DNA of 12,932 nucleotides from a virus (taxonomy: Duplodnaviria; Heunggongvirae; Uroviricota; Caudoviricetes), in IMG/VR virus record IMGVR_UViG_2529292920_000011, positions 1 to 12,932 of that record. One strand, 5' to 3'. This document shows, one piece after another, positions 1-12,932 of this stretch. Made by a program: the position numbers and the translations under genes. The notes below the pieces were generated by a model. The model made no database searches, was not told the origin of the DNA, and was given only the letters and a program-made list of their open reading frames with translations. The stretch's first letter is position 1. Each line of letters opens with the position of its first letter.

Positions 1-11
1 GTTTGGGGGAA
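1..11. other. Partial invertase crossover site 1 (right half only; centre dinucleotide lies 1-2 nt upstream of the window)
   Basis: Window opens with GTTTGGGGGAA, the reverse complement of the left half of site 3 (TTCCCCCAAACC) minus one base. It sits at the 5' boundary of cassette A, as sites 2-5 sit at the other cassette boundaries. Confidence 0.5.
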
Positions 12-536
12 GGCTCTGCACTGCCCGTTGGTGTACCTGTTCCGTGGCCCTCAGCCACTCCACCAACGGGCTGGCTGAAATGCAACGGCGCAGCATTTTC
101 TTCTGAAGATTACCCCAAATTGGCACAGGCTTACCCCGCGAACAAATTACCGGATCTACGGGGTGAATTTATCCGTGGCTGGGATGATGGACGTGGCTTG
201 GATGCTGGGCGTGCCTTGCTAAGTCTTCAGGATGACTCTTTTGAAGCGCACAGGCATGAGTCCTTTTTTTATGCGGGTATTTCACGTAATGAGACCCCAT
301 TAAAAAATCTTCCAAGTTCAGACGAGATGCTGACTTTAAGTTCCACAACTAATGCCTTGTCCCCGGACAGTATTGATGCCACCAACTCGTTAATTGGTAA
401 TGACGATTACAACTGTCTTATCGAAGGGAATAAAAATAACAAACGAACAGCGACAGGACTGAGTACCAGTATTGTCGGCACAGCAGAAACACGCCCCCGC
501 AACGTTGCATTCAATTACATCGTAAGAGCTGCATGA
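3..536 (+). CDS. Tail-fibre C-terminal receptor-binding cassette A (tail-collar type), 5'-partial; the constant N-terminal part of the fibre gene must lie upstream of the window
   Basis: Frame is open from the window edge, so the 'M' in the track is an internal TTG (Leu). Conserved N-terminal block GEGSALPVGVPVPWPSATPPTGWLKCNGAAFSSE..LPDLRGEFIRGWDDGRG, an HxH motif (HRHES) and the C-terminal ETRPRNVAFNYIVRAA are shared with the other cassettes. Motif pattern matches phage tail-collar / MdpB-like fibre tips. Confidence 0.8.
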   Translation: MGEGSALPVGVPVPWPSATPPTGWLKCNGAAFSSEDYPKLAQAYPANKLPDLRGEFIRGWDDGRGLDAGRALLSLQDDSFEAHRHESFFYAGISRNETPLKNLPSSDEMLTLSSTTNALSPDSIDATNSLIGNDDYNCLIEGNKNNKRTATGLSTSIVGTAETRPRNVAFNYIVRAA

Positions 537-555
537 AAACGTTGGTTTAGGGGAA
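530..555. other. Crossover site 2 (gix/hix-like, 12+2+12)
   Basis: TGCATGAAAACG-TT-GGTTTAGGGGAA. The AAAAC..GTTT core resembles Gin/Hin sites (AAACC-NN-GGTTT). Overlaps the TGA stop of cassette A and begins the conserved leader of cassette B. Site 4 is its exact reverse complement. Confidence 0.6.
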
Positions 556-576
556 GGCTCTGCACTGCCCGTTGGT

Positions 577-1023
577 GTGCCCGTTCCGTGGCCCTTAGCA
601 ACACCACCAACGGGCTGGCTGAAATGTAACGGTGCAGCATTTTCTTCTGAAATGTACCCCAATCTGGCAAAAGCCTACCCCACCAATAAATTACCGGATT
701 TACGGGGCGAATTTATTCGTGGCTGGGATGATGGGCGAGGAATTGATGCAGCACGCGCTTTATTGAGCATTCAAACCGGGATGTTGGAAAAACACCGCCA
801 TATTGTTGTAGCTAACGATGGATATGACACAAAGGATGAATGGGAGTTGGCCACGATTTTCAAAAAAACATATACACAAGGCAGGGGGCTTGATGCCACA
901 AATACAGGAGGGAGTTTGATTCCATCACCAACGCTTCATTCACGAGGAAGTATTGGTAACACAGGTGGTAGTGAAACCCGCCCCCGCAATATTGCATTTA
1001 ACTATATCGTGAGGGCGGCTTAG
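577..1023 (+). CDS. Tail-fibre C-terminal cassette B (silent alternative cassette; frame is open from 526, through site 2)
   Basis: Same conserved N-terminal block (PVPWPLATPPTGWLKCNGAAFSSEMYP...LRGEFIRGWDDGRG), HxH (HRH) and C-terminal ETRPRNIAFNYIVRAA, with a different middle segment. No promoter or constant region is attached, so it is expressed only after rearrangement. Confidence 0.7.
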   Translation: MPVPWPLATPPTGWLKCNGAAFSSEMYPNLAKAYPTNKLPDLRGEFIRGWDDGRGIDAARALLSIQTGMLEKHRHIVVANDGYDTKDEWELATIFKKTYTQGRGLDATNTGGSLIPSPTLHSRGSIGNTGGSETRPRNIAFNYIVRAA

Positions 1024-1209
1024 TTATATTCAACTGGCTGCTGCCAGTGGTATTTCCGGCAAGTTGATATCTGGTGCCATGTTTATATCCATTGCGTTCA
1101 GCGCGTCTATATAATCCAGCACGGCGTTAAGCCGGGTGGTTTCTGCCTGCGTCAACTTCCGCCGGCCTGCAACTTCAACTGAATCAGACTTATGGAAGCC
1201 ATTGCCGCA

Positions 1210-1641
1210 TCAGCCAGTGACTGGCGCTTGGTTTCTGCCCGCTTCTACTGCGGCACTATGTTGTGCCTCAGTATCTGTCACCCATTTTTCACCATCCCAT
1301 TTATCGTATGGCGTCGACGGGGAGATAGTGGTTGTATTTTTCGGGTAGTCACCTAGCGTCGTGATTTCTTCGGTGTTTCCCGTGTCAGTGTTATAGACGG
1401 TTTCACCACGATGATCTGGCGTATACTCCCATGAATTTAAATTCTCCGAACGGCGGATAGCATAGCCCGCTTTATGTGCGCCCGGGGCATCTAAACAGGA
1501 ATTTGCCGGAATACCGACACCCGCAGCAAGATATTCAGTTGATTCGGAAATATATTCCCGTGTCTCACCATCATAGTTATAAACGACGATGTTTCCTGCC
1601 TGTACGGCAATAAGGTCATCATTTAATATCGCGTTATTCAT
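1210..1641 (-). CDS. Tail-fibre assembly chaperone (Tfa, lambda Tfa / Mu U family), N-terminal 143 codons ending at an in-frame TGA; probable pseudogene whose remnant extends to about 1030
   Basis: Recalled lambda Tfa pattern is matched (VYN.., G.PANS, W...DHRGETVY, Y.KW.G..WV.DTEA). Start ATG overlaps the stop of cassette C (TAATG coupling). Beyond the TGA at 1210-1212 the same frame still encodes a Tfa-like C-terminus (KLTQAETTRLNAVLDYIDALNAMDINMAPDINLPEIP) down to a stop at 1030-1032. Confidence 0.6.
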   Translation of the reverse strand: MNNAILNDDLIAVQAGNIVVYNYDGETREYISESTEYLAAGVGIPANSCLDAPGAHKAGYAIRRSENLNSWEYTPDHRGETVYNTDTGNTEEITTLGDYPKNTTTISPSTPYDKWDGEKWVTDTEAQHSAAVEAGRNQAPVTG

Positions 1642-2099
1642 TATGCGGTTCTCACAATATAATTGAAGGCAATATTGCGTGGGCGGGTTTCATTCCCCTC
1701 TGAGGATTCCGTTCTGTATTGACTGGTAAATCTACCGTTAATTGCACCTTGCCGGACGGCGTTATCTGTCGACAACAGACTATCCCCGCCTTTGTCATTT
1801 GGCACCAGTACCGTGTTATCCCACGCATCCCATGACCGAATATTATGATAATGACTTCCTGTTAACCACCCCTGCATGCTTAAGATGACCCTTCCGGCAT
1901 CCACCCCGCGCCCATCATCCCAGCCACGGATAAATTCACCGCGTAAGTCTGGTAATTTATTGGTGGGGTAAGCCATTGCCAGTCTGGGATACATTTCAGA
2001 AGAAAATGCTGCGCCGTTACATTTCAGCCACCCCGTTGGCGGCGTGGCTGAGGGCCATGGAACAGGTACACCAACGGGCAGTGCAGAGCCTTCCCCCAA
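1641..2099 (-). CDS. Tail-fibre C-terminal cassette C (the only cassette followed by a tfa gene)
   Basis: Conserved leader GEGSALPVGVPVPWPSATPPTGWLKCNGAAFSSEMYP..LRGEFIRGWDDGRG, HxH (HYH), C-terminal ETRPRNIAFNYIVRTA. The 'M' is an internal TTG; the frame opens inside site 3. Confidence 0.75.
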   Translation of the reverse strand: MGEGSALPVGVPVPWPSATPPTGWLKCNGAAFSSEMYPRLAMAYPTNKLPDLRGEFIRGWDDGRGVDAGRVILSMQGWLTGSHYHNIRSWDAWDNTVLVPNDKGGDSLLSTDNAVRQGAINGRFTSQYRTESSEGNETRPRNIAFNYIVRTA

Positions 2100-2116
2100 A
2101 CCAACGTTTTCATGCG
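2091..2116. other. Crossover site 3 (inverted relative to sites 1 and 2)
   Basis: TTCCCCCAAACC-AA-CGTTTTCATGCG. Central AA on the plus strand, against TT in site 2. Lies at the D/C cassette junction and overlaps the stop of cassette D. Confidence 0.6.
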
Positions 2117-2583
2117 GCTCTTACGATGTAATTAAATGCAACGTTGCGAGGGCGAGTTTCTGTACCTACATTTCCACTAATTTCACCAAACCGTTTTACA
2201 TTACGAGAGCTAATGGCTCGTAGTGAGGAAGGCACATTTAAACCGGGTTCGTCTGTTTTAACTATTCCCCCGTCCCCGTATGTAGCCAGTATTCCAGGGT
2301 CTACTCCTTCCCGTGTACTTCCCGCGGCAAGTCCACCCCCGGTCCATAATTCCATATAGTGTGCATGATCCAAAATTGTGTGTGGCTGCCAATTAAGCAG
2401 AGCGCGGCCAGCATCCACCCCGCGCCCATCATCCCAGCCGCGAATAAATTCGCCCCGTAAATCCGGTAATTTATTGGCGGGGTAGGCCTTTGCCAGATTG
2501 GGGTACATTTCAGAAGAAAATGCTGCACCGTTACATTTCAGCCAGCCCGTTGGCGGCGTGGCTGAAGGCCATGGAACGGGCAC
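2110..2583 (-). CDS. Tail-fibre C-terminal cassette D
   Basis: Conserved leader, HxH (HAH), C-terminal ETRPRNVAFNYIVRAA. Its first 63 residues are near-identical to cassette B, matching the inverted-repeat geometry. Confidence 0.75.
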   Translation of the reverse strand: MPVPWPSATPPTGWLKCNGAAFSSEMYPNLAKAYPANKLPDLRGEFIRGWDDGRGVDAGRALLNWQPHTILDHAHYMELWTGGGLAAGSTREGVDPGILATYGDGGIVKTDEPGLNVPSSLRAISSRNVKRFGEISGNVGTETRPRNVAFNYIVRAA

Positions 2584-2604
2584 ACCAACGGGCAGCGCCG
2601 AGCC

Positions 2605-2630
2605 TTCCCCTAAACCAACGTTTTCATGCA
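2605..2630. other. Crossover site 4
   Basis: TTCCCCTAAACC-AA-CGTTTTCATGCA, the exact reverse complement of site 2. Lies at the E/D cassette junction and overlaps the stop of cassette E. Confidence 0.6.
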
Positions 2631-3214
2631 GCTCTTACGATGTAATTGAATGCAACGTTGCGGGGGCGTGTTTCTGCTGTGCCGACAATACTGGTACTCA
2701 GTCCTGTCGCTGTTCGTTTGTTATTTTTATTCCCTTCGATAAGACAGTTGTAATCGTCATTACCAATTAACGAGTTGGTGGCATCAATACTGTCCGGGGA
2801 CAAGGCATTAGTTGTGGAACTTAAAGTCAGCATCTCGTCTGAACTTGGAAGATTTTTTAATGGGGTCTCATTACGTGAAATACCCGCATAAAAAAAGGAC
2901 TCATGCCTGTGCGCTTCAAAAGAGTCATCCTGAAGACTTAGCAAGGCACGCCCAGCATCCAAGCCACGTCCATCATCCCAGCCACGGATAAATTCACCCC
3001 GTAGATCCGGTAATTTGTTCGCGGGGTAAGCCTGTGCCAATTTGGGGTAATCTTCAGAAGAAAATGCTGCGCCGTTGCATTTCAGCCAGCCCGTTGGTGG
3101 AGTGGCTGAGGGCCACGGAACAGGCACACCAACGGGCAGTGCAGAGCCTTCTCCTAAACCAACGTTTTCGTCTTTATCCCTACCTATACCAACTATGTAT
3201 TTTTCACGAAACAA
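2624..3214 (-). CDS. Tail-fibre C-terminal cassette E (inverted duplicate of cassette A; silent here)
   Basis: Residues 20-196 are identical to cassette A. The frame opens only at 3226, immediately after a stop, so no constant fibre N-terminus is attached in this orientation. Confidence 0.75.
   Translation of the reverse strand: MFREKYIVGIGRDKDENVGLGEGSALPVGVPVPWPSATPPTGWLKCNGAAFSSEDYPKLAQAYPANKLPDLRGEFIRGWDDGRGLDAGRALLSLQDDSFEAHRHESFFYAGISRNETPLKNLPSSDEMLTLSSTTNALSPDSIDATNSLIGNDDYNCLIEGNKNNKRTATGLSTSIVGTAETRPRNVAFNYIVRAA
3149..3174. other. Crossover site 5 (outermost site, adjacent to the invertase gene)
   Basis: TTCTCCTAAACC-AA-CGTTTTCGTCTT. The inner half is conserved with sites 3 and 4; the outer half diverges, as expected for a site bordering non-invertible DNA. 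It lies 55 bp upstream of the invertase ATG, as gixR/cixR lie next to gin/cin. Confidence 0.6.
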
Positions 3215-3228
3215 AGAGGATGTTTTTT

Positions 3229-3828
3229 ATGCAAATTGGCTATATTCGTGTGTCAACAAATGACCAGAACACGGATTTACAACGCAATGCACTGAACTGC
3301 GCAGGATGTGAACTGATTTTTGAAGATAAAATCAGCGGAACGAAATCAGCCAGACCGGGATTGAAAAAACTGCTCAGAACGCTATCAGAAGGAGATACGC
3401 TGGTTGTCTGGAAGCTGGACAGACTGGGCAGAAGTATGAAACACCTGATCACGCTTATTGAGGAATTGCGGAAAAAAGGTGTTAATTTCCGTAGTCTGAC
3501 GGACAGCATTGACACATCAACACCCATGGGGCGTTTCTTTTTTCACGTCATGGGGGCTTTAGCCGAAATGGAACGTGAATTAATTGTAGAGCGTACACTG
3601 GCCGGGCTGGCAGCAGCACGCGCACAAGGACGCATTGGCGGACGTCGCCCGAAGTTGACAAAAGAACAACACGAGCAAATAGCGAGGCTGATTAAATACG
3701 GTCATGACAGGAAACAACTGGCGATCATTTACGACATCGGCATATCGACGATTTATCGTTATCACCCTGTAGGCGATATACAGGCTGAAGAAACAACCAG
3801 GCAGACTCAGGAAAATGAAAACCGCTAA
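3229..3828 (+). CDS. Site-specific DNA invertase, serine recombinase of the Gin/Pin/Hin/Cin family
   Basis: N-terminus MQIGYIRVSTNDQNTDLQRNAL with the catalytic Ser in the YIRVSTNDQ motif; central VVWKLDRLGRSMKHLI and GRFFFHVMGALAEMERELI; C-terminal HTH (GISTIYRY). AGAGGA Shine-Dalgarno 8 nt upstream of the ATG at 3229. The track ORF 3034-3828 is an upstream in-frame extension running through site 5 and is unlikely to be real. Confidence 0.93.
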   Translation: MQIGYIRVSTNDQNTDLQRNALNCAGCELIFEDKISGTKSARPGLKKLLRTLSEGDTLVVWKLDRLGRSMKHLITLIEELRKKGVNFRSLTDSIDTSTPMGRFFFHVMGALAEMERELIVERTLAGLAAARAQGRIGGRRPKLTKEQHEQIARLIKYGHDRKQLAIIYDIGISTIYRYHPVGDIQAEETTRQTQENENR

Positions 3829-3854: not shown

Positions 3855-4349
3855 TCAAAACAGCCCTTTAACGGAGCTGGCCGCGCTGTTAAGAGATGAT
3901 GTCACCTTGTCTTTGAAGCCGGACAGCATATCACTGAACGATGAGGATTGCAGGCGCTCCCGCAAATCCTCATCACAGCGTTCAAGAGTCAGTGAAAATT
4001 CTATCTTTTTCGCCTTACCGTAGCGATCAAACTCGGAGCGGGTCGTATTCGTTTCAGTCAGTACATACATGCCGTAAATCTGCCCGACACCATCAATCAG
4101 AGGCCAGGGGCGTCCTGTATATGCCTGCGTGGTCAGCAGCGAAAGCGACACTTCGCCACCTGTAATTTCAGGATAAAGCACGCCAGAAAGCACGATGCGA
4201 TCATCACCTGCACCGATATACTGCCAGCTTGCTGAGCGGTTTACGCGCTCATTTTTCACATGCCGCCAGCTTTTGTTTTGCTGTAACTGCTGATGCGGCA
4301 ATGTGCGCAGCTCAAAAACAAACATGCCGTAGATCATCATCATGGCCAT
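3855..4349 (-). CDS. Tail protein gpU-like (P2 U family)
   Basis: 164-aa ORF directly downstream of the tape measure gene on the same strand, the usual gpU position. Contains WRHVKNERV and LSGVLYPEITGG segments that I recall from gpU proteins. True start may be an internal Met. Confidence 0.75.
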   Translation of the reverse strand: MAMMMIYGMFVFELRTLPHQQLQQNKSWRHVKNERVNRSASWQYIGAGDDRIVLSGVLYPEITGGEVSLSLLTTQAYTGRPWPLIDGVGQIYGMYVLTETNTTRSEFDRYGKAKKIEFSLTLERCDEDLRERLQSSSFSDMLSGFKDKVTSSLNSAASSVKGLF

Positions 4350-4355
4350 GACTCC

Positions 4356-7199
4356 TCAATCTTTATCGTAAAAACTGCCACGCCCGGCACGGGCGCGCCG
4401 TTCCATCTCTGCCCTGACCATTTCGCCGACCAGTTTCGCCAGTTCGCGGGGATTCTGTGTAACAACGTTATGCAGATGAACATGAATTTCACCACCAAAT
4501 CCGGAGGCAACAGGCTCCCGGTTACGGGAAGTTGCAGGAACTGATGCCACTGGCGATCGTATGGCCTCCGCCACCGGGCGGGAGCTGGCCGCAACAACAG
4601 GGACCAGCGCCGGAGGCAGCGGAGCCGGAACCACGGGTGTGATATTAATTGCGGGGGCAGGCTTACTGACCTGCGCAATCTTCCGCTCCTGCCACTCCCC
4701 ACGAACAGCAAGTGCGCGGGGCAGGTTCTTAAAGACAATATCGCCGGGGCCAATGCGTTTTTTCGTCTCATCAACCAGCTTACCTGTGTTATCAGCAATT
4801 TTGCTGAGTCTGCGTAGCGTGCCGGTATTGCTGTCTGTGAGCGGTTTGTTGTCTTTGGGGTTATCGCCTCCGGTGCCATTGCCATTTTCCACAGGCTTCG
4901 GCGGATTGATTTTCGCAATGTCTCCCTGAAACAGAGCAACCTTGTCCTGAAGAATGGCCGCACGCTGTGCGTCTTCGATTTTCTTTCTCGCCCTTTCCGC
5001 TTCATCCGGAAGCACACCGAGTTTTTCAAGTATCCACGCCAGCGTATCCAGCAACATTTTTGCAGGCGTCAGAACAAGCTGTAGCGCGCCACCAAGAACG
5101 TTACCGAATATCTCGCCAGCACTGGTACATTTATCCAGCGTTTCCTTGCTGGACTCCATCGGTGACAACAGCGATTTAAACCAGTTAAACACCTGGCTGA
5201 TCCCGCTTCCGATTGCGTCAAAAACAGGGCCAAACCGTTCAAAGGTTTCGCGCAACGGGGTCAGCCTTTCCATAATCCCGCTGAACACCCCGGCAAAAAA
5301 TGCCCTGATGGGATCCCAGTATTTCCAGATGAGAACGGCAGCTCCGGCAAGCGCAGCCACGATAAGACCGACCGGACTGAACAACGCCCCGATAGCGCCT
5401 CCCAGTAAAGAAACGGACCACGTCACCATTCCCCATAACGCAGGCAACACTCTGACAACATTCATTGACCGGGTAAGAATGTCGAAACCAAGACGCAGGG
5501 TGGCCAGCTTCCCGTAAAGCACCCCAATAACCAGTGACAACGAGCCAATCGTTGCAGTCATTGCCAGCAACGCACCGCCTGCTATCAGTAGCTGGCGCGT
5601 CAGTACCGGATGGGCCTGCGCCAGCGAGGTGATTTTTTCAAGCACCCGCGTGAACCACTGCGTGACAGAACGCAGCGGACCGTCAACCAGATCACTGATG
5701 CGAATACGAAGACCTTCCCATGCGCTGTCGAGATTTTTCAGGTCCCCATCAAGATTATCGGCCATTACTTTTGCGACGCGATCGGCCTCTCCCCTTGCCC
5801 CCTGCAATTCTCTGGTCAGTTTTTGCAGCTCTCCTGAACCAGCCGCCGCAACAAGCGTCTGCAAACCAACGAACGCCTCTTCTCCGGCGATGTCCTTGAA
5901 GAAGGAAACCTGGTCCACCTGTCCGTATTTTTGTGTCGCCTTATAGAGATCAAGCAGCACATCCTCCATCGGGCGCATTTTGCCTCTGGCGTCAGCAACT
6001 GACACTCCCAGCTCTTTCAGCGCATCAGCCGCAGCTTTTGGCGGTGATGCAAGGCGGGACAGACTTGCGCGCATGGCCGTACCAGCATCGCTTCCGCGAA
6101 GACCATTATTGGCAAGCATCCCGGCCATGGCCGCCGCTTCTTCAAGACTGATACCAAGTTTTGCGGCAACCGGACCGGTATACTTCATGGTTTCGCCCAG
6201 CGCGCGTAAATCAGTATTGGTCCGGGTGAATGCTGCTGTCAGCGTATCGCCAACCCGGTCCATTTGATCGGCTGTCAGGTTGAACTGTGTGAGGATATTG
6301 GAGCCTATATCAGCCGTCTCGCCGAGTTCGACGCCACCTGCCAGCGCCATATTAAGAACACCGGGCAATGCGGCCTGAATGGCCTGCGGAGTAAAACCAG
6401 CCATTGCCAGAAAGCTCTGCCCACTGGCGGCATCACTCGCAGTAAACTGTGTTTCAGAGCCAAGTTTTAACGCCTGCTCACGCAGCGCCTTAAACTGCGG
6501 GCTGTTTTTGTCGATTCGCGTCAGTGCCTGAACGCGGGACATCTCTTTGCCGAACCCGATCGCAGGCTGCAAAAAACGCCCGGCAGCATAGCCGCCCGCC
6601 GCTGCCGCACCAATTGCCAGCGCACCACCTGTTTTCAGTTTTCCCGCAGTTTCCTGCGCGCGCGAATACCGCTCACGCGCCCTCGTTACACGCGCAAGCG
6701 CCTGCCGTTCGCGTTCAAGCTGGTTGTTGTACTGTTCGGTGCGTCTGATGGCCTGCTGAATGGTGTTATCGCTGCCTGTCAGTGAAATGCCGTGGCGTTT
6801 CAGCTCTCCGCCAAGCTCCCGCATTTTCTGAATTTCCCGTGTGCGCGATTCATTCAGGCGTTCAAGCCGGGTGCTTAACTGCTGCATCAGCTTTTGTTGT
6901 TTTTCGCTGAGCACTGTACCCGTGCGTTGTAACTGATTAAGGGCGTTAAGCTGGCGTCGTGCTTTCACGATGCCCGCATCCGCTTTACTGACAGCGTCAC
7001 GGGCGCGCTCAAATGATCGCGCCTGACGCTCGAGATTTTTGATCGCCCCCTGCGTTCGCTGGATGGAGTCACCAAACTGCCCCATCAGGCGGCGGGCATT
7101 TTCGGCAGGCCGGGTCAGCCTGTCAACGGCGCTGAAAGCGACCCGGATATCAAGAGTCTTCATTGTCTGCATTCCCGCTGCGAAGTGCCGCCCGCTCAC
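4356..7199 (-). CDS. Tail tape measure protein (P2 gpT-like)
   Basis: Roughly 940-aa ORF with a coiled-coil N-terminal third, a Gly/Ala-rich central hydrophobic stretch (GALAIGAAAAGGYAAG) and a long helical/hydrophobic C-terminal half. Sits between the E/E' and U genes. True start is probably ATG 7172 (MQTMKTLDIR) or 7163, overlapping the E' stop. Confidence 0.9.
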   Translation of the reverse strand: MSGRHFAAGMQTMKTLDIRVAFSAVDRLTRPAENARRLMGQFGDSIQRTQGAIKNLERQARSFERARDAVSKADAGIVKARRQLNALNQLQRTGTVLSEKQQKLMQQLSTRLERLNESRTREIQKMRELGGELKRHGISLTGSDNTIQQAIRRTEQYNNQLERERQALARVTRARERYSRAQETAGKLKTGGALAIGAAAAGGYAAGRFLQPAIGFGKEMSRVQALTRIDKNSPQFKALREQALKLGSETQFTASDAASGQSFLAMAGFTPQAIQAALPGVLNMALAGGVELGETADIGSNILTQFNLTADQMDRVGDTLTAAFTRTNTDLRALGETMKYTGPVAAKLGISLEEAAAMAGMLANNGLRGSDAGTAMRASLSRLASPPKAAADALKELGVSVADARGKMRPMEDVLLDLYKATQKYGQVDQVSFFKDIAGEEAFVGLQTLVAAAGSGELQKLTRELQGARGEADRVAKVMADNLDGDLKNLDSAWEGLRIRISDLVDGPLRSVTQWFTRVLEKITSLAQAHPVLTRQLLIAGGALLAMTATIGSLSLVIGVLYGKLATLRLGFDILTRSMNVVRVLPALWGMVTWSVSLLGGAIGALFSPVGLIVAALAGAAVLIWKYWDPIRAFFAGVFSGIMERLTPLRETFERFGPVFDAIGSGISQVFNWFKSLLSPMESSKETLDKCTSAGEIFGNVLGGALQLVLTPAKMLLDTLAWILEKLGVLPDEAERARKKIEDAQRAAILQDKVALFQGDIAKINPPKPVENGNGTGGDNPKDNKPLTDSNTGTLRRLSKIADNTGKLVDETKKRIGPGDIVFKNLPRALAVRGEWQERKIAQVSKPAPAINITPVVPAPLPPALVPVVAASSRPVAEAIRSPVASVPATSRNREPVASGFGGEIHVHLHNVVTQNPRELAKLVGEMVRAEMERRARAGRGSFYDKD

Positions 7200-7416
7200 G
7201 CCAGCTAACCACTTCGCCGGGCGTCATCATGAAGATTTCGGCGGGCGACCAGTTAAAAATGGCGGCAATATCCGCCACCAGATCTTCGATGTGCTCAAAG
7301 CACACCAGGGTGATTACGCTGCCGTCTCCTGCACGCTCTTCGCGCCAGAGTCTGGCTCGCTCATAAAATTTACAGCCACAGCGCACAGCTGAATAAAATC
7401 GCGTGACGACATTTTT
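7150..7416 (-). CDS. E' extension frame (-1 relative to gpE); expressed only as an E+E' fusion by programmed -1 frameshift
   Basis: The -1 frame is open from 7416 to a stop at 7150-7152 and overlaps the 3' end of gpE (7314-7416). Slippery candidates lie in the overlap. Same arrangement as P2 E/E' and lambda G/GT. Confidence 0.6.
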   Translation of the reverse strand, partial: KNVVTRFYSAVRCGCKFYERARLWREERAGDGSVITLVCFEHIEDLVADIAAIFNWSPAEIFMMTPGEVVSWRERAALRSGNADNEDS

Positions 7417-7688
7417 TTAATCATCACTTCATCCAGTCGTGGCGAGGTCACGCGAGGCAACAGCGTAAACATGGTATCCGCTTTCAGATTCAGCACATCA
7501 GACAGCGACAGACCACGCAGGGATCCAGCCTGCTCAATAGCCCCGGTGATCTCCACATACGTGATTTTTTCGCCACCACGCTCAATTTGTCGGGTCAGTT
7601 TTACGCCACGTTCGACAGCCATATCCTCACCTGCCGTCACATCATCCGCCACGGTGTTATTCCGGGTTTCAGTATCGATGTCTTTCAT
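7314..7688 (-). CDS. Tail assembly chaperone gpE-like
   Basis: 124-aa ORF between the tube and tape measure genes. AGGAGA Shine-Dalgarno 6 nt upstream of the ATG at 7688. A -1 frame (E') overlaps its 3' end. Confidence 0.75.
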   Translation of the reverse strand: MKDIDTETRNNTVADDVTAGEDMAVERGVKLTRQIERGGEKITYVEITGAIEQAGSLRGLSLSDVLNLKADTMFTLLPRVTSPRLDEVMIKKMSSRDFIQLCAVAVNFMSEPDSGAKSVQETAA

Positions 7689-7743
7689 CAGTTGTCTCCT
7701 TTTCAGTCAGAGGCGACGCACTGCGCCGCCTGCATATTACTTA

Positions 7744-8256
7744 TCAGCCAAGCCCAAGCGCGGAACGGATACGGTCAGGCACAATGTCCTTGCCGTCCTT
7801 CCGGTAGATGTGGTTCAACAGGTCGATTTCCCACAGCGGGCGATCGTTAACGCTCAGCTTGTAGTAGGTGTTTTTGACAGCGTAAGTGTGTGATGTGGCT
7901 TCGCCCTGTTTGGCTTCCCCCATATCAATTTCCGTCACACGCCCGCGCATCTCGATTTCATACAGATCGCTTTCTGCATCGGTGTAGTATTCACCCGCAA
8001 AACGCAGCAGCGTGCCGTCAATCGTGCCGCCATATTTAAGGAACAGCGCACGAACAGCTCCCCCCATGACAAAACTCGCATCAAGCGCGGAGTCGTCCAG
8101 ACCGAGATCAATACTTACCGCCCCCATCATGCCACCCCCCCGGTAGCTGTCGGTTTTGCGCGTCAGTTTGGGCGGCGTGACGGATGTCACTTTACCCACT
8201 TCGTTTTCACCATCCACAAACAACGTAAAAAAGCGAAGATGTTTTGGTACAGCCAT
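7744..8256 (-). CDS. Tail tube protein (P2 FII-like)
   Basis: 170-aa ORF immediately downstream of the sheath gene, with a 1-nt stop/start overlap (TGATG). Size and position are typical of the FII tube family. Confidence 0.88.
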   Translation of the reverse strand: MAVPKHLRFFTLFVDGENEVGKVTSVTPPKLTRKTDSYRGGGMMGAVSIDLGLDDSALDASFVMGGAVRALFLKYGGTIDGTLLRFAGEYYTDAESDLYEIEMRGRVTEIDMGEAKQGEATSHTYAVKNTYYKLSVNDRPLWEIDLLNHIYRKDGKDIVPDRIRSALGLG

Positions 8257-9440
8257 CAGGCACCTCCCAGCACCGCAAATGCGGGACCAAAGAATTCATC
8301 AGTAAACGTCTGGTAAAGCTCCATGTCTTCCAGTGGCGGAACGGGCGTATATTTGTAGCGAATACGCACACGTCCCTGACGTAAATTCGTGGTGCCGTTA
8401 TCCACCACGTCATACCAGCACTCCGCGCCAATCAGTTTCCCGGCAGTAACCAGCGAATCCAGTTTTGCCCTGATGGCACTGATAACATCCTTCACGTTCG
8501 CAGGCGTCAGTGGACTGTCGATGGTTTCAAATTGCGCTTCCGCAATTGAATCAGCCAGCACCTGTGCGGCTCGGGTATACACCTCAAAGATGTAGGCGTT
8601 CGTTTCCGGTGTGCGGTTGCCCCAGAAGCGGAATCCGTTGCGACGAATAATGGTCGTGATTTCTTTGTTATTGAGGCTGTTGGCATCACTGTCTTCGGCC
8701 TGCAACGACCAGAACACATGCCTGGACATTCCCAGCACATTTTTAACCGGAACGTTGGACAGCGATTTGTGCCAGCCCTGCTCATGGTCAATGTACGCAC
8801 GAAGGCCGCACGCATAAGCAGGCGCGGGGAACGTTTCGTTTTTTCCACTTTTCGGGTTGTAGGCGATGAAGTCCGGCCATAAGAGCATCACCTCACGTTC
8901 GTTGAATTTCTGGCGGTAGGTAATCGCCTCAGCCATCGTGTTACAACCATGACATGTGGCATACACAAACGCGCGCAGTTTACCCGCAATCACGCACAGG
9001 GATTTCGTTACCGCCTCCGTGTCCAGCTCCGGCGCGGCCAGAATACGCGGACGGTATCCGATGCTTTCATCCTGCTCTGCAACAAGCAGCGCATACATCC
9101 CCGTATAGCTGCCGTCATCCTCAGAACCACCGATAACCAGTTGATCCTGCGTCTTACCGTCTTCTTCTTTGTGTTCAGCCACGCGAACGACGATCACCTT
9201 TGTGCTCACCTGGTCTGCGATGGCCTTAAGCGCACGATAAAGCGTCCCCGTTGTCCCGCATTTTCCCAGCACGTCATTGACGCGGGTCAGCAGTGTGGGC
9301 TTGTTCAGCGGGAACAGCTTCGCGTCCGCATCATCCGCCGTTGCCACGATACCGATAACGCTGGAATCAACATCGTTAATCGCTGTTACCAGGTCGGTAT
9401 TTTCCGTAACACGGGCACCATGAAAACGAGTTTCACTCAT
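8256..9440 (-). CDS. Contractile tail sheath protein (P2 FI-like)
   Basis: 394-aa ORF (MSETRFHGARVTENTDLVTAINDVDSSVIG...) of the size and position expected for a P2-type sheath, first gene of the sheath-tube-E-T-U block. Confidence 0.9.
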   Translation of the reverse strand: MSETRFHGARVTENTDLVTAINDVDSSVIGIVATADDADAKLFPLNKPTLLTRVNDVLGKCGTTGTLYRALKAIADQVSTKVIVVRVAEHKEEDGKTQDQLVIGGSEDDGSYTGMYALLVAEQDESIGYRPRILAAPELDTEAVTKSLCVIAGKLRAFVYATCHGCNTMAEAITYRQKFNEREVMLLWPDFIAYNPKSGKNETFPAPAYACGLRAYIDHEQGWHKSLSNVPVKNVLGMSRHVFWSLQAEDSDANSLNNKEITTIIRRNGFRFWGNRTPETNAYIFEVYTRAAQVLADSIAEAQFETIDSPLTPANVKDVISAIRAKLDSLVTAGKLIGAECWYDVVDNGTTNLRQGRVRIRYKYTPVPPLEDMELYQTFTDEFFGPAFAVLGGA

Positions 9441-9597
9441 AGCTTCAGCCCCTTGTATCCGTTAAATGATTCGGCAACAATCATCACCCACCACGCGCGT
9501 AATCTCACCCCTGCGCCGTTCTCCCGCCACGGCGACAACAAAAAGCAGTCCCCCCCTCCGCACGCACATGCGACCATGCCGCACAGGGAGGGAACAG

Positions 9598-10338
9598 ATG
9601 ACCGACACCACCATGCAATTGCTCAGTCAGGGCACAGACCCCGTAAAAATGCCGGATTTTGATATTCTCGCGGAGGGGAAAAGGCTGTCCGGCGTGGCAG
9701 AGCGCCTGATGAGTCTGTCACTGACCGACAACCGGGGATTTGAAGCAGACCAGCTCACCATCACGCTGGATGATGCGGATGGTCAGTTGCAGCTACCGCC
9801 ACGGGGCGCGCGTCTGACGGTTCTCATTGGCTGGAAAGGCGAACCGCTGACAGAAAAAGGTTCTTACATTGTTGATGAAATCGCACACGAAGGACCGCCG
9901 GACAGGCTGACGGTTTCAGCCAGAAGCGCAGATTTTCGGGATGAATTTAACGTTAAACGTGAGGTGTCCTGGCATGATGTGACCGTTGAGCGTGTGGTAT
10001 CCGCCATCGCTCATCGGTACGGCCTGAAACCGCAAATCAGCGAAATGCTGATGGATATCGAAATCGACCACGCCGACCAGACCGAAGAAAGCGACATGTC
10101 CTTCCTTACGCGCATGGCGGAAATGCTGGGCGCAATCACCACGGTAAAAAGCGGTAATCTGTTATTCATCATGCCAGGCGGTGGCGTGAACGCACAGGGC
10201 CAGCCGTTGCCATCGTTCGCCATCACACGCAGCAGCGGCGATCGCCATCAGTTCCGCATTGCTGACCGCGAGGCGTATACGGGGGTACGCGCCTACTGGC
10301 TTGATCTTAATTACGGGAAAAAGAAAAAGTCAGCGTGA
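9598..10338 (+). CDS. gpD-like tail protein (P2 late control gene D family), N-terminal 246 codons, ended prematurely by a frame change
   Basis: ATG at 9598 preceded by GGGAGGG (the track start 9466 is an upstream extension). Sequence ...LTVLIGWKGEPL...LTVSARSADFRDEF...SFLTRMAEMLGA...YTGVRAYWLDLNYGKKKKSA* stops inside an A-rich tract. Confidence 0.75.
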   Translation: MTDTTMQLLSQGTDPVKMPDFDILAEGKRLSGVAERLMSLSLTDNRGFEADQLTITLDDADGQLQLPPRGARLTVLIGWKGEPLTEKGSYIVDEIAHEGPPDRLTVSARSADFRDEFNVKREVSWHDVTVERVVSAIAHRYGLKPQISEMLMDIEIDHADQTEESDMSFLTRMAEMLGAITTVKSGNLLFIMPGGGVNAQGQPLPSFAITRSSGDRHQFRIADREAYTGVRAYWLDLNYGKKKKSA

Positions 10339-10706
10339 AACGCCGCAAACCGCCCAAGCTCAAAAAGGAGAAAAGCAGCAGCCGTGAAGGTGATTATATG
10401 GAAGGCGCGGAAGGCAATGTTTTTGTGTTACGCAAGACTTATCAGAACGAGCAGGCAGCAAGACGCGCAGCGGCGGCAAAGTGGCAGCAGCTACAACGCG
10501 GAGCCGCATCATTCTCCATCACGCTGGCGCGTGGACGTGCAGAACTCTACCCCGAAATGCATGGCACGGTAACAGGATTTAAAAGCGAGATTGATAATCA
10601 GGACTGGATTATTGCAAAAGCCGAGCACACCATTGATAACAGCGGCTTTACCACACAGCTTGAGCTTGAAGCAAAAATCCCGGAATGGATAGCAGAAACA
10701 GAATAA
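10335..10706 (+). CDS. gpD-like tail protein, C-terminal part in the -1 frame (frame open from 10311)
   Basis: ...AAAKWQQLQRGAASFSITLARGRAELYPEMHGTVTGFKSEID...GFTTQLELEAKIPEWIAETE is the continuation of a single gpD. Together the two parts give about 370 aa, the normal gpD size. Confidence 0.7.
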   Translation: MKRRKPPKLKKEKSSSREGDYMEGAEGNVFVLRKTYQNEQAARRAAAAKWQQLQRGAASFSITLARGRAELYPEMHGTVTGFKSEIDNQDWIIAKAEHTIDNSGFTTQLELEAKIPEWIAETE

Positions 10707-10834
10707 ATCTCTTAAAAATATTATTTTTGAGATGTGCTTCTACACTGACAGTAAGAACAAAAGATAATGTATCAGCCCACTAGATGTCAGAGGTTGGGGC
10801 ATCAACCAGATGCTAACAATAATACGGATGTTTT

Positions 10835-10864
10835 TCCCACATGACAGAGGAAGTCAAGTATAAT
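10835..10864 (+). promoter_or_regulatory. Candidate sigma70 promoter for the AT-rich island genes
   Basis: -35 ATGACA (10835-10840), 18-bp spacer, -10 TATAAT (10859-10864), about 90 bp upstream of the ATG at 10955. Found by eye only. Confidence 0.3.
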
Positions 10865-10954
10865 CTTCACAGTCCCTCCCGTCCAAGGGAATATGACTCA
10901 ATAGTAAAAGTTCCAGTTTAGTTAGTAGACCCACACTTTATAGAAGAGTAAATC

Positions 10955-11902
10955 ATGATTGGACAATTTTTAAGTGCAACAGAGATTTTAGCAAAGAACT
11001 ATGTTCGTAATAAAATGGTTAAAAATCCATTTTATTCGAATTTAAAATGGAATTTTGTTGAAAAAAACATCATAAGATTAACATCCTCACCGGTTAAATC
11101 AGTACTTTGCATATCAGCTTTTTCATTTGTACTACTTTATGTTGGATATTTAAACGAATTATTTATAAAAAAGAATCTTTTACATTATTTCCCGTTTAGG
11201 CATTCATTAACCGAATGGCAAACAACCATTTTAAGTGGCCAATTGACAATTATTGGTATTGTATACCCCCTTGTTATAGGTTTAGTAAGTGTCTTATTCC
11301 AAAAAAAAGCAGATAGAAAAATAGCCCAAACTGCTTATCAGCGTTACTCAGGATTCATGCTTGCTGGACTCAGCGGGCTTTTCTTATCAGGATTTATACT
11401 TCTCAGTGTACTAATTAAAACTGTCTTTGGAAGTTATCTTTATGGTATAGCCTGTCTAATCAGCATATTATGGCTTTTGATAAACATAGTTCTTTCTATT
11501 TGGTTCTTTATCGTGAGCCTTGAAATTCTTGATGATGTAAAACGGCAAATAATTATAAAGCGATACATTGCCTTCGAAATAGTAATGCCCCATATTTGTA
11601 ACAAAATCTCAGCCAATCTTAGGTTATACCCTATCTATCAAAAACATAACTATTCAAATTTAGAAATCAAGCAAGCCGATTACAAAGGAGAATACATATC
11701 TGTGGCTAGCAGTTATTCTAAGGAAGATGAGTTAAGTTTATATCACCGTCCTTTTCAACTTATTCTTAATCTTATTAATTACCAACTAAAAAAAAGAATC
11801 ATTTTGCGTCATTTGTCATTGGTGATAATCGTGCAAAAGAAACAGAATCCACGGGTAAGATACTTTTTAGCGTTAAAAATATCAAACCAGACAGCTTATT
11901 AA
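10955..11902 (+). CDS. Multi-pass membrane protein of unknown function (4-5 predicted TM helices), first part of a probable larger gene
   Basis: 315-codon open frame in about 30% GC DNA, where stops are frequent. Hydrophobic segments: VLCISAFSFVLLYVGYL, LTIIGIVYPLVIGLVSVLF, GFMLAGLSGLFLSGFILLSVLI, YLYGIACLISILWLLINIVLSIWFFIVSL. No family recognised. Confidence 0.65.
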   Translation: MIGQFLSATEILAKNYVRNKMVKNPFYSNLKWNFVEKNIIRLTSSPVKSVLCISAFSFVLLYVGYLNELFIKKNLLHYFPFRHSLTEWQTTILSGQLTIIGIVYPLVIGLVSVLFQKKADRKIAQTAYQRYSGFMLAGLSGLFLSGFILLSVLIKTVFGSYLYGIACLISILWLLINIVLSIWFFIVSLEILDDVKRQIIIKRYIAFEIVMPHICNKISANLRLYPIYQKHNYSNLEIKQADYKGEYISVASSYSKEDELSLYHRPFQLILNLINYQLKKRIILRHLSLVIIVQKKQNPRVRYFLALKISNQTAY

Positions 11903-12932
11903 TAAAAATACTTAAGCAATGTTTTTATAGGGCTCCGATTAAAGGAGGAGATTTTTCCGTAAGTCTTACAATGCAGGCTATAACAGCAGATACGTATATG
12001 TATCTGCGGGATTCTGATCTCTTTAGTTTTGACGATGCTATCTCTGCATTAATTAATAACTTTAATAATCTCTGCGATTTGTATTTTTTTCAAGATGACA
12101 ATACCAACAATAATTTCTTACTGATCACTACAGAATTATTTGAACGGAGTTTTCAATATGAGTTTTCAGATGAAGTTTATAAAATATCAAATAATTCCAT
12201 GGATAAAATTAATCTTTCTGAAAGATTTTTTGAATTATGTCTTTGGAGCGGAGTGCGTATTCTTAATAATAGAAAACATCTTATCAGCAATGAACTTTGT
12301 ATCTATATGGGAATTACTCGTTCACAATGGTCAATATTAACAGAATGGTTCCGAAACAACCAATCACTCTTAAATGCCTCGCTTCGTTCACGTTATAATC
12401 GTATATTAAGAACCTATGCCACTGTTTGGGAGCAATATCAAGAAAGCATCAACTTTCGTTTCTGCAATACAGAGAATTCAGATTTATTTGAATTATTTTG
12501 CAAAACGCAACTACAAGAACTTCCATCGATCATTATTGATGCAACACAGACTCGCGATCCTTCTACTATTGATACAGCCGTCGATCTTATTAACCGATGG
12601 CAGCACTCAATGAATATTGACAGCCATTCGGTAGAAAAATACAGTTACCAAGGCCAGCTTTTTAACCCGGGTTTTTTCATCTCCAAAAAACTAAACTTCA
12701 ATTCAGACAGAGAGTGGTTCAATATTGCCATCATAAATGCGTTGACTGACATGCGTATATGCACATGTCTTTATCTGACATCAAGAATCAATACTTCTGA
12801 CAAACTAATGACACATTACATTAAACTTATTTTAGAGGGTAAACTTATTGACCAAACCGGTGGATATGAAACTCCCACTGAAGAAATTGATAATGCAAGC
12901 CAACTAATCAAGATATTAGTTAGAATCTGCCT
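11779..12932 (+). CDS. Long ORF of unknown function, 3'-partial (runs off the window); probable continuation of the membrane-protein gene in the -1 frame
   Basis: I translated this frame by hand; it has no stop from 11779 to the window end (about 384 codons) in AT-rich DNA. First ATG is at 11971; AGGAGG at 11944-11949 is too far from it to be a convincing RBS. It is not in the ORF track, presumably because it has no stop in the window. Confidence 0.6.

Follow-up and report, generated by a model that had tools for sequence, protein, structure and literature searches.

A stop-free frame at the end of a contig

The window analysed here is the whole stretch of 12,932 nucleotides, which is the entire contig AIEZ01000017.1 (12,932 bp) of assembly GCA_000249135.2. 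Its right end raises the question whether a long, stop-free frame that runs to the last nucleotide is a gene in its own right and, if it is not, to what protein it belongs and what that protein does. A first-pass annotation, made from the letters alone, had described this frame (11779-12932), noted that it was missing from the ORF track and attributed it to an uncharacterised cargo protein.

Independent translation of 11779-12932 gave 384 sense codons and no stop. Given the local base composition (A 0.34, T 0.32), 7.2% of the codons should be stops, and the probability that an opening of 384 codons arises by chance is approximately 3e-13, which makes a chance origin very unlikely, as had been argued. 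None of 20,000 shuffled versions of the segment was stop-free (longest opening 190 codons), and the remaining five frames of 10701-12932 contain 22-88 stops each. The two track ORFs at 12140-12340 and 12416-12613 do exist, in another frame within the open stretch, and the description of them as shadows was correct. The frame is indeed absent from the track, because the track omits ORFs that run past the sequence end and the window comprises the whole contig; since the contig ends here, the gene runs off its end.

The frame is directly preceded by a TAA (11776-11778), and its earliest ATG is at 11971, with no start codon before it. The first three codons from 11779 are an out-of-frame reading, and the true correspondence to a protein starts at K279 (nucleotide 11788). 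The earlier reading was thus sound as regards real coding, the shadow ORFs, the unnamed family and the cargo character (see below), but not as regards an independent gene beginning at 11779: the frame corresponds to residues 279-659 of a protein of 1,039 residues.

Structure of the split gene

The downstream sequence, which the first-pass annotation had asked for, was obtained from intact copies and gave the full length of 1,039 amino acids; the gene is solitary and has no operon partner. The intact CDS is L001:12256-15375 (3,120 nt, 1,039 aa). Residues 660-1039 lie outside the window, at approximately L001:14233-15372, followed by the stop codon at 15373-15375, and the 3' part of the gene is also found in L012, L013 and L015. 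The region is present in five complete E. coli chromosomes, and in all five it is a single 3,120-nt CDS. The intact product is named 'hypothetical protein' (WP_049143931.1) or 'MFS transporter' (WP_264716223.1). The features of the window that bear on the split gene, all on the + strand, are the following.

9597-10706, +: gpD (late control D), a P2-type tail gene forming the left flank; Pfam Phage_GPD matches both halves, and L001 has an intact 369-aa CDS
10739-10768, +: promoter-like site TCTACA-18 nt-GATAAT (L001 12040-12069), found by consensus scan, a consensus match only
10943-10948, +: GAAGAG, a Shine-Dalgarno-like motif 6 nt ahead of the ATG at 10955
10955-11794, +: residues 1-280 of the 1,039-aa protein from ATG 10955, in the frame of the listed ORF 10955-11902
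11093-11515, +: four predicted transmembrane helices (hydropathy, positive-inside counts, model helices)
11788-11795, +: A8 homopolymer, the frameshift site; A9 (codons K279-K281) in intact alleles, or AAAAAAGAAG in the ~99% allele
11795-11902, +: out-of-frame tail of 35 codons, RIILRH...NQTAY, ending in TAA, recognised by comparison with the intact protein
11788-12932, +: the stop-free frame, residues 279-659, comprising the last part of a small alpha/beta domain and roughly two thirds of a helical region, cut at the contig end

The listed ORF 10955-11902 (315 aa, ATG start) and the open frame share 124 nt, read in different frames, and the A8 run lies inside this overlap. The product of the ORF matches the intact protein exactly up to and including residue 280, after which 35 wrong codons lead to the stop. 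Compared with NZ_CP134716, the window shows just two differences between 9910 and its last nucleotide, both of them single-A deletions, one in gpD at about 10324 (A5 for A6) and one in the cargo gene (A8 for A9, codons K279-K281). That the stop-free frame forms the middle of a single gene, interrupted by a 1-nt homopolymer deletion, is close to certain. In the strain of origin the A9 run has lost one A, and translation from ATG 10955 therefore stops at 11902, giving 280 native residues (the four-helix membrane domain and some 90 more) followed by 35 wrong ones; the downstream remainder has no start codon nearby. The gene is most likely inactive in this strain. For the window itself this is an unremarkable result, a piece of a frameshifted hypothetical gene at the contig edge, and it is a correction, in that an apparently new ORF turns out to be the tail of a frameshifted gene.

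The A8 deletion is a real allele

A missing A in a 2012-era draft could be a homopolymer undercall in a strain that truly carries the intact A9 gene, and the contig does seem error-prone: it has a second 1-nt deletion in an A run, in gpD, that is unique among the assemblies. This second deletion, in GAAAAAAG near 10324, splits gpD into ORFs of 290 and 123 aa. The homopolymer is A6 in L001, L002, L012, L013 and L015 and A5 in the window only, and the gpD deletion, being private to this assembly, is probably a sequencing error. For the cargo gene the same explanation is improbable, because the exact 315-aa truncated product was found, together with the A8 DNA, in three further independent assemblies (Logan SRR25118670, GCA_048001485.1 and Logan SRR22078033), and in these gpD has its normal run. 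The A8 deletion is therefore a real allele, common to several isolates on one haplotype.

The A8 copies are 0-4 SNPs per 4.8 kb away from the intact L001 allele. As all of them are on one haplotype, one mutational event suffices, and independent recurrence of the deletion is unsupported. In many bacteria, runs of nine A slip readily and are hypermutable; eight A, too, can allow productive slippage, which restores the frame in part of the transcripts (PMC1088944). Since A8 and A9 are both found in nature on one haplotype, the run could be a phase-variation tract, or RNA polymerase could slip on A8 and yield some full-length protein; a small fraction of full-length product may arise through transcriptional slippage on A8. 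As an account of the split, a switchable or leaky gene is nevertheless not probable, though somewhat less remote than the undercall. Lysines K279-K281 are encoded as AAAAAAGAAG in the ~99% allele, which has the identical KKK, and the residues vary across the family, so the A9 run is a recent accident rather than a conserved switch. A contingency gene shows repeated independent changes of length, and here the two lengths coexist but A8 is confined to its single haplotype. Further broken copies in complete genomes of Shigella and E. coli, with products of 391 and 98 aa, point to ordinary decay. A conserved slippery site or programmed frameshift was rejected, since the relatives read in a single frame, the ~99% allele has an interrupted run and the residues are variable.

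The copies in Oceanisphaera (L033 5941-9137) and Psychrobacter (L037 5986-9276) also appear as two ORFs each, of 578 + 494 aa and 428 + 559 aa, respectively, which suggests more independent inactivations of family members.

The gpD-ogr slot of a P2-like prophage

The element that carries the gene is a complete P2-like prophage with integrase, replication gene, portal, terminase, capsid, tail genes and ogr. It is integrated between btuC and ihfA, and the cargo gene lies at its right end between gpD and ogr. At the end of gpD the GC content drops from about 55% to 31%. The spacer of 248 nt between gpD and the cargo gene is AT-rich and contains the promoter-like site (see above), and a terminator-like hairpin lies 8 nt past the stop codon of the cargo gene; both, from sigma-70 and terminator scans, match a consensus only and are as such weak evidence. 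ogr of this type occurs in 1,127 of 5,426 E. coli genomes. The 1,039-aa gene was found in the gpD-ogr slot of only five genomes. In four sampled prophages the gpD-ogr interval was 42 bp in two and held other genes in the other two, namely a 500-aa PIN-domain protein (L040 3255-4757, O111:NM strain FWSEC0005) and a 379-aa YecA-family (SEC-C motif) protein (L042 3572-4711). Because the interval is empty or differently filled in other prophages, gpD-ogr is a genuine variable cargo slot. The earlier proposal that the frame encodes cargo is borne out by these observations, a 31% GC insert within a 55% GC prophage at a site that varies between prophages. The slot is probably the one reported in P2-like phages as a third hotspot between a tail protein and CI (10.1101/2024.10.15.618418); the cargo of P2-like prophages has also been surveyed by hotspot (10.64898/2026.02.27.708500). 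The cargo region gave no megablast match among 50,697 phage records, and no RNA family was found in the whole window with Rfam.

Several other features of this prophage type were observed. Other prophage-borne functions might be sought in the PIN-domain and YecA-family genes of the slot. ParM, a partition/stability protein and two pseudogenes occupy the classical P2 hotspot, which lies between the replication and portal genes (L038 10097-12485), and no known defence system was recognised there. At the right end, ogr is invariably followed by a gene for a hok/gef-family toxin (L001 15962-16102; L039-L042 5452-5592), independently of the integration site, be it ihfA, flk, raiA or a tRNA cluster. 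The sheath-tube-E-tape measure-gpU operon (3855-9440) is on the strand opposite to gpD (9597-10706), from which it is separated by a divergent spacer of about 160 bp, and this arrangement is found throughout the prophage lineage (window, L001, L039-L042). In P2 itself the sheath-tube-E-tape measure-gpU genes are co-oriented with D.

A large family outside the domain and defence catalogues

The first-pass annotation could name no match for the protein, and this holds for the searches with profiles and structures that it had suggested: there was no match to a named family in Pfam, NCBIfam, PADLOC, PHROGs or PDB sequences, and the C-terminal end is predicted to match a capsid fold (see below). 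The full protein matched no Pfam, NCBIfam or PADLOC profile, and in PADLOC-DB 2.0 no defence family was found at E<=1. PHROGs gave a non-significant match only (E 0.014), the family profile matched no PDB sequence, and nine distant members searched against Pfam gave sub-threshold matches only.

A word-indexed search recovered 186 relatives, almost all full length. An exhaustive profile search yielded 503 representatives at 50% identity, of which 151 scored E<1e-30; nearly all of these proteins measure 1,030-1,150 aa and align from one end to the other. The family thus comprises at least 503 clusters at 50% identity, a lower bound. Counted with one genome per species, it is present in Enterobacterales, Vibrio, Shewanella, Pseudoalteromonas, Alteromonas, Psychromonas, Psychrobacter, Oceanisphaera, Aliikangiella, Bermanella and a Desulforhopalus, a patchy, transfer-driven distribution.

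These relatives also bear on the split allele. Gene callers predict both halves of the gene in L012, L013 and L015, and a 315-aa membrane fragment acting jointly with a soluble fragment of 691-700 aa (ATG 11971 or later) might be imagined as two working genes. We regard this as very improbable: among the 186 and 503 relatives the protein is almost always one full-length chain, the ATG at 11971 is preceded by TTTTCCGTAAGTCTTACA, in which no ribosome-binding context was found, and the split is limited to one shallow lineage.

Some members are annotated as transporters. Like MFS transporters, the protein is an integral membrane protein with several hydrophobic helices. Unlike them, it has four predicted helices instead of twelve (two six-helix bundles), 80% of it is cytoplasmic, and no MFS profile of Pfam or NCBIfam matched at E<=1. 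Helix number and the absent profile match speak against MFS identity, and the name 'MFS transporter', which hundreds of public copies bear, is unsupported. This is a large family, absent from the domain and defence catalogues and mislabelled as a transporter.

Predicted architecture

Hydropathy predicts membrane helices at residues 47-66, 97-115, 136-154 and 165-187, and the long helices of the structural model are at 46-66, 85-114, 134-158 and 160-190. By positive-inside counts the positive charges are on the N-terminal side and in the loop 116-131. Both termini of the four-helix domain are therefore predicted to be in the cytoplasm, and with them the remainder of about 850 residues. Across the whole family, conservation peaks in TM2-TM3, with a mean column identity of 87% for residues 101-150. 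Invariant columns are dense between Q89 and D194, and the invariant polar residues include Q89, Q96, T98, Y104, P105, S112, Q116, Q129, Y131 and S132. Conservation is lowest in the final 240 residues (41-48%).

An AlphaFold model of the 98%-identical protein P0001, made with an alignment of 35 sequences, had a pLDDT of 80.7 and a pTM of 0.67. From the N-terminus it shows the membrane helices, a small alpha/beta domain (~230-330), helices at ~334-830 and a beta-rich end. Some 500 residues of helical repeats are thus predicted behind the alpha/beta domain. The poorly conserved C-terminal ~210 residues (~831-1038) are predicted to have the HK97 major-capsid-protein fold. Foldseek against predicted viral structures gave 146 matches at E<=0.001 (best 1.1e-8, probability 1.00), and the named ones were almost all capsid or head proteins. 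Two methods and two libraries were concordant, and the match rests on a predicted structure. By structure comparison the modelled domain appears to contain the hallmarks of the fold, an E-loop hairpin, a long spine helix, a P-domain sheet and an A-domain. This domain lies beyond the contig end and was hence invisible to the first-pass annotation.

At the sequence level no membership in Phage_capsid, Linocin_M18 or the P2-family capsid proteins was found in Pfam, NCBIfam, PHROGs or PDB sequences, and hhalign against the P2-family capsid protein of the resident prophage gave a probability of 0.7%. A recent duplication of the resident capsid gene was rejected, as there is no significant similarity. 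The missing sequence link to capsid families indicates that the domain is an old acquisition, not a recent copy.

Gene neighbourhoods

In every context examined the family gene stands alone, among neighbours that change from one context to the next. Apart from the P2 slot, the following contexts were found.

Colicin-type plasmids: gene adjoining an AAA_15/21 ATPase and a RES-domain protein
P4-like satellite: gene with DUF3800, FRG and HNH genes
Integrase/KAP-NTPase islet: SIR2_2-domain gene ~7.7 kb downstream, at the locus edge
Serratia islet: gene with DUF3800, HNH and TIR
Pantoea P4-like element: gene with an AAA_15/21 ATPase
Aliikangiella and Psychromonas: gene between hsdM-hsdS and hsdR of a type I restriction operon
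Four other distant loci: housekeeping or uncharacterised neighbour genes

The setting is that of mobile elements or defence genes in 7 contexts (the P2 slot, two P4-like satellites, the Serratia TIR island, the KAP NTPase islet, the colicin plasmids and, twice, type I restriction operons) and neutral in 4. Among these contexts the association with defence genes and mobile elements is frequent, not universal. A conserved partner gene was rejected overall, as the neighbours change. In the Pectobacterium / Pantoea stewartii subfamily an ORF of 200 aa with a Phage_integrase domain lies ~280 nt upstream (L011 7122-7724; L019 7122-7724; L020 2296-2898); it could be a mobility remnant or a partner gene.

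Possible function

We infer that the family is a single-gene system directed against phages or other mobile elements. A defence role appears to us somewhat more probable than not, and the entire explanation, composed of the split cargo gene, the membrane protein with a capsid fold and the single-gene anti-phage or anti-mobile-element system, is about evenly balanced between right and wrong. How such a protein might act is more tentative. Most likely among the possible mechanisms, the cytoplasmic capsid-fold domain would engage the capsid-assembly machinery of an infecting phage, be it the capsomers of the capsid protein, the scaffold, the protease or the portal. As one outcome, assembly would be trapped or poisoned at the membrane; as another, a signal would pass via the helical region to the conserved membrane domain, membrane integrity would collapse and the infection would be aborted. 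The conserved membrane domain would then be the anchor or the effector, and the variable capsid-fold domain the engaging part. This specific mechanism, with the capsid fold as bait, is possible but doubtful.

The nearest precedent is Ccm of the staphylococcal phage satellite SaPIbov5 (PDB 7rwz_A), a homolog of the capsid protein that the satellite encodes; it enters the capsids of the helper and suppresses this phage (PMC8569155). Ccm is a free capsid-protein homolog of 260 residues whose sequence similarity to its target is recognisable and which serves the satellite's own packaging. In contrast, the predicted capsid fold described here is the last fifth of an inner-membrane protein of 1,039 residues, and the family has no detectable sequence similarity to capsid families and is also found in non-packaging elements (plasmids, restriction operons). 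Interference with assembly as a means of defence is known from the Tai systems, which act on tails (PMC11364771). Tai is thus a precedent for the blocking of virion assembly, but it targets tails and is without a capsid fold.

prrC, which encodes the anticodon nuclease of the EcoprrI locus, occupies the position between hsdS and hsdR. Like it, the family gene is embedded in type I restriction operons, after hsdS and before hsdR, in two genera. PrrC is genetically linked to a type I enzyme, which silences it, and its trigger is an anti-restriction factor of a phage (PMC2610378). Unlike PrrC, the present protein is a membrane protein without an ABC-ATPase or nuclease domain, and most members are unlinked to restriction genes.

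Anti-phage cargo is known to occupy hotspots of P2-like prophages and P4-like satellites (PMC9122126; 10.64898/2026.02.27.708500). The gene resembles such cargo in being a single AT-rich gene with promoter-like and terminator-like sites, found both in P4-like satellites and in a P2-like prophage, there in a slot of variable content. It differs in that the gpD-ogr slot is not one of the two classical P2 hotspots and in having no match to a catalogued system.

The family might instead have nothing to do with immunity and act in superinfection exclusion by blocking DNA entry at the inner membrane, as a transporter, or as a membrane-tethered assembly of the encapsulin type. As an inner-membrane protein of prophages and plasmids it is like many exclusion proteins, some members lie among housekeeping genes, and encapsulins include HK97-fold fusions with extra domains and even with predicted transmembrane helices (PMC8346489). 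We consider this group of explanations unlikely, each for its own reason. Blocking DNA entry does not need a cytoplasmic region of 850 residues with a terminal capsid fold and leaves the insertion inside type I restriction operons unexplained, and the MFS form of a transporter is opposed by the helix number and the profile search (see above). Encapsulins (families 1-3 and fusion encapsulins) are shell proteins whose operons contain a conserved partner, either cargo or enzyme, whereas this family is solitary, with no conserved cargo or enzyme partner and with neighbours that differ in all contexts; it also has ~760 extra residues, including the conserved four-helix membrane domain, and no match to Linocin_M18 or Phage_capsid.

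If the preferred explanation, defence, is correct in its specific form, the protein would represent a new type of immune protein, in which an ancient, exapted capsid fold is tethered to the inner membrane as bait or poison and coupled to a four-helix effector, a proposal that we put forward with considerable reserve. No defence protein before it would have had a capsid-fold domain at its core, and it would give the HK97 fold a fourth cellular fate after capsids, gene-transfer agents and encapsulins; no description of a capsid-fold defence protein or of a membrane protein of this architecture was found in the open-access literature. Should the family be an immune system, bacteria would have turned the capsid fold itself into a means of detecting or sabotaging capsid assembly, and the gpD-ogr slot would be a further P2 cargo site to mine. 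The intact allele has a length that permits direct cloning and testing.

Tail-fibre inversion region

The left part of the window (1-3828) is a multiple-inversion region of the tail fibre with the following genes.

3034/3229-3828, +: serine recombinase (Resolvase + HTH_7)
3-536 and 577-1023, +; 1641-2099, 2110-2583 and 2624-3214, -: five alternative Collar-domain tail-fibre C-terminal cassettes
1210-1641, -: tail-fibre assembly ORF

L001 is without an invertase at the corresponding place. Inverted repeats in the region reach 759 nt at 97% (1-759 versus 2401-3159), and the extension of this repeat to position 1 may be the reason why the contig starts there.
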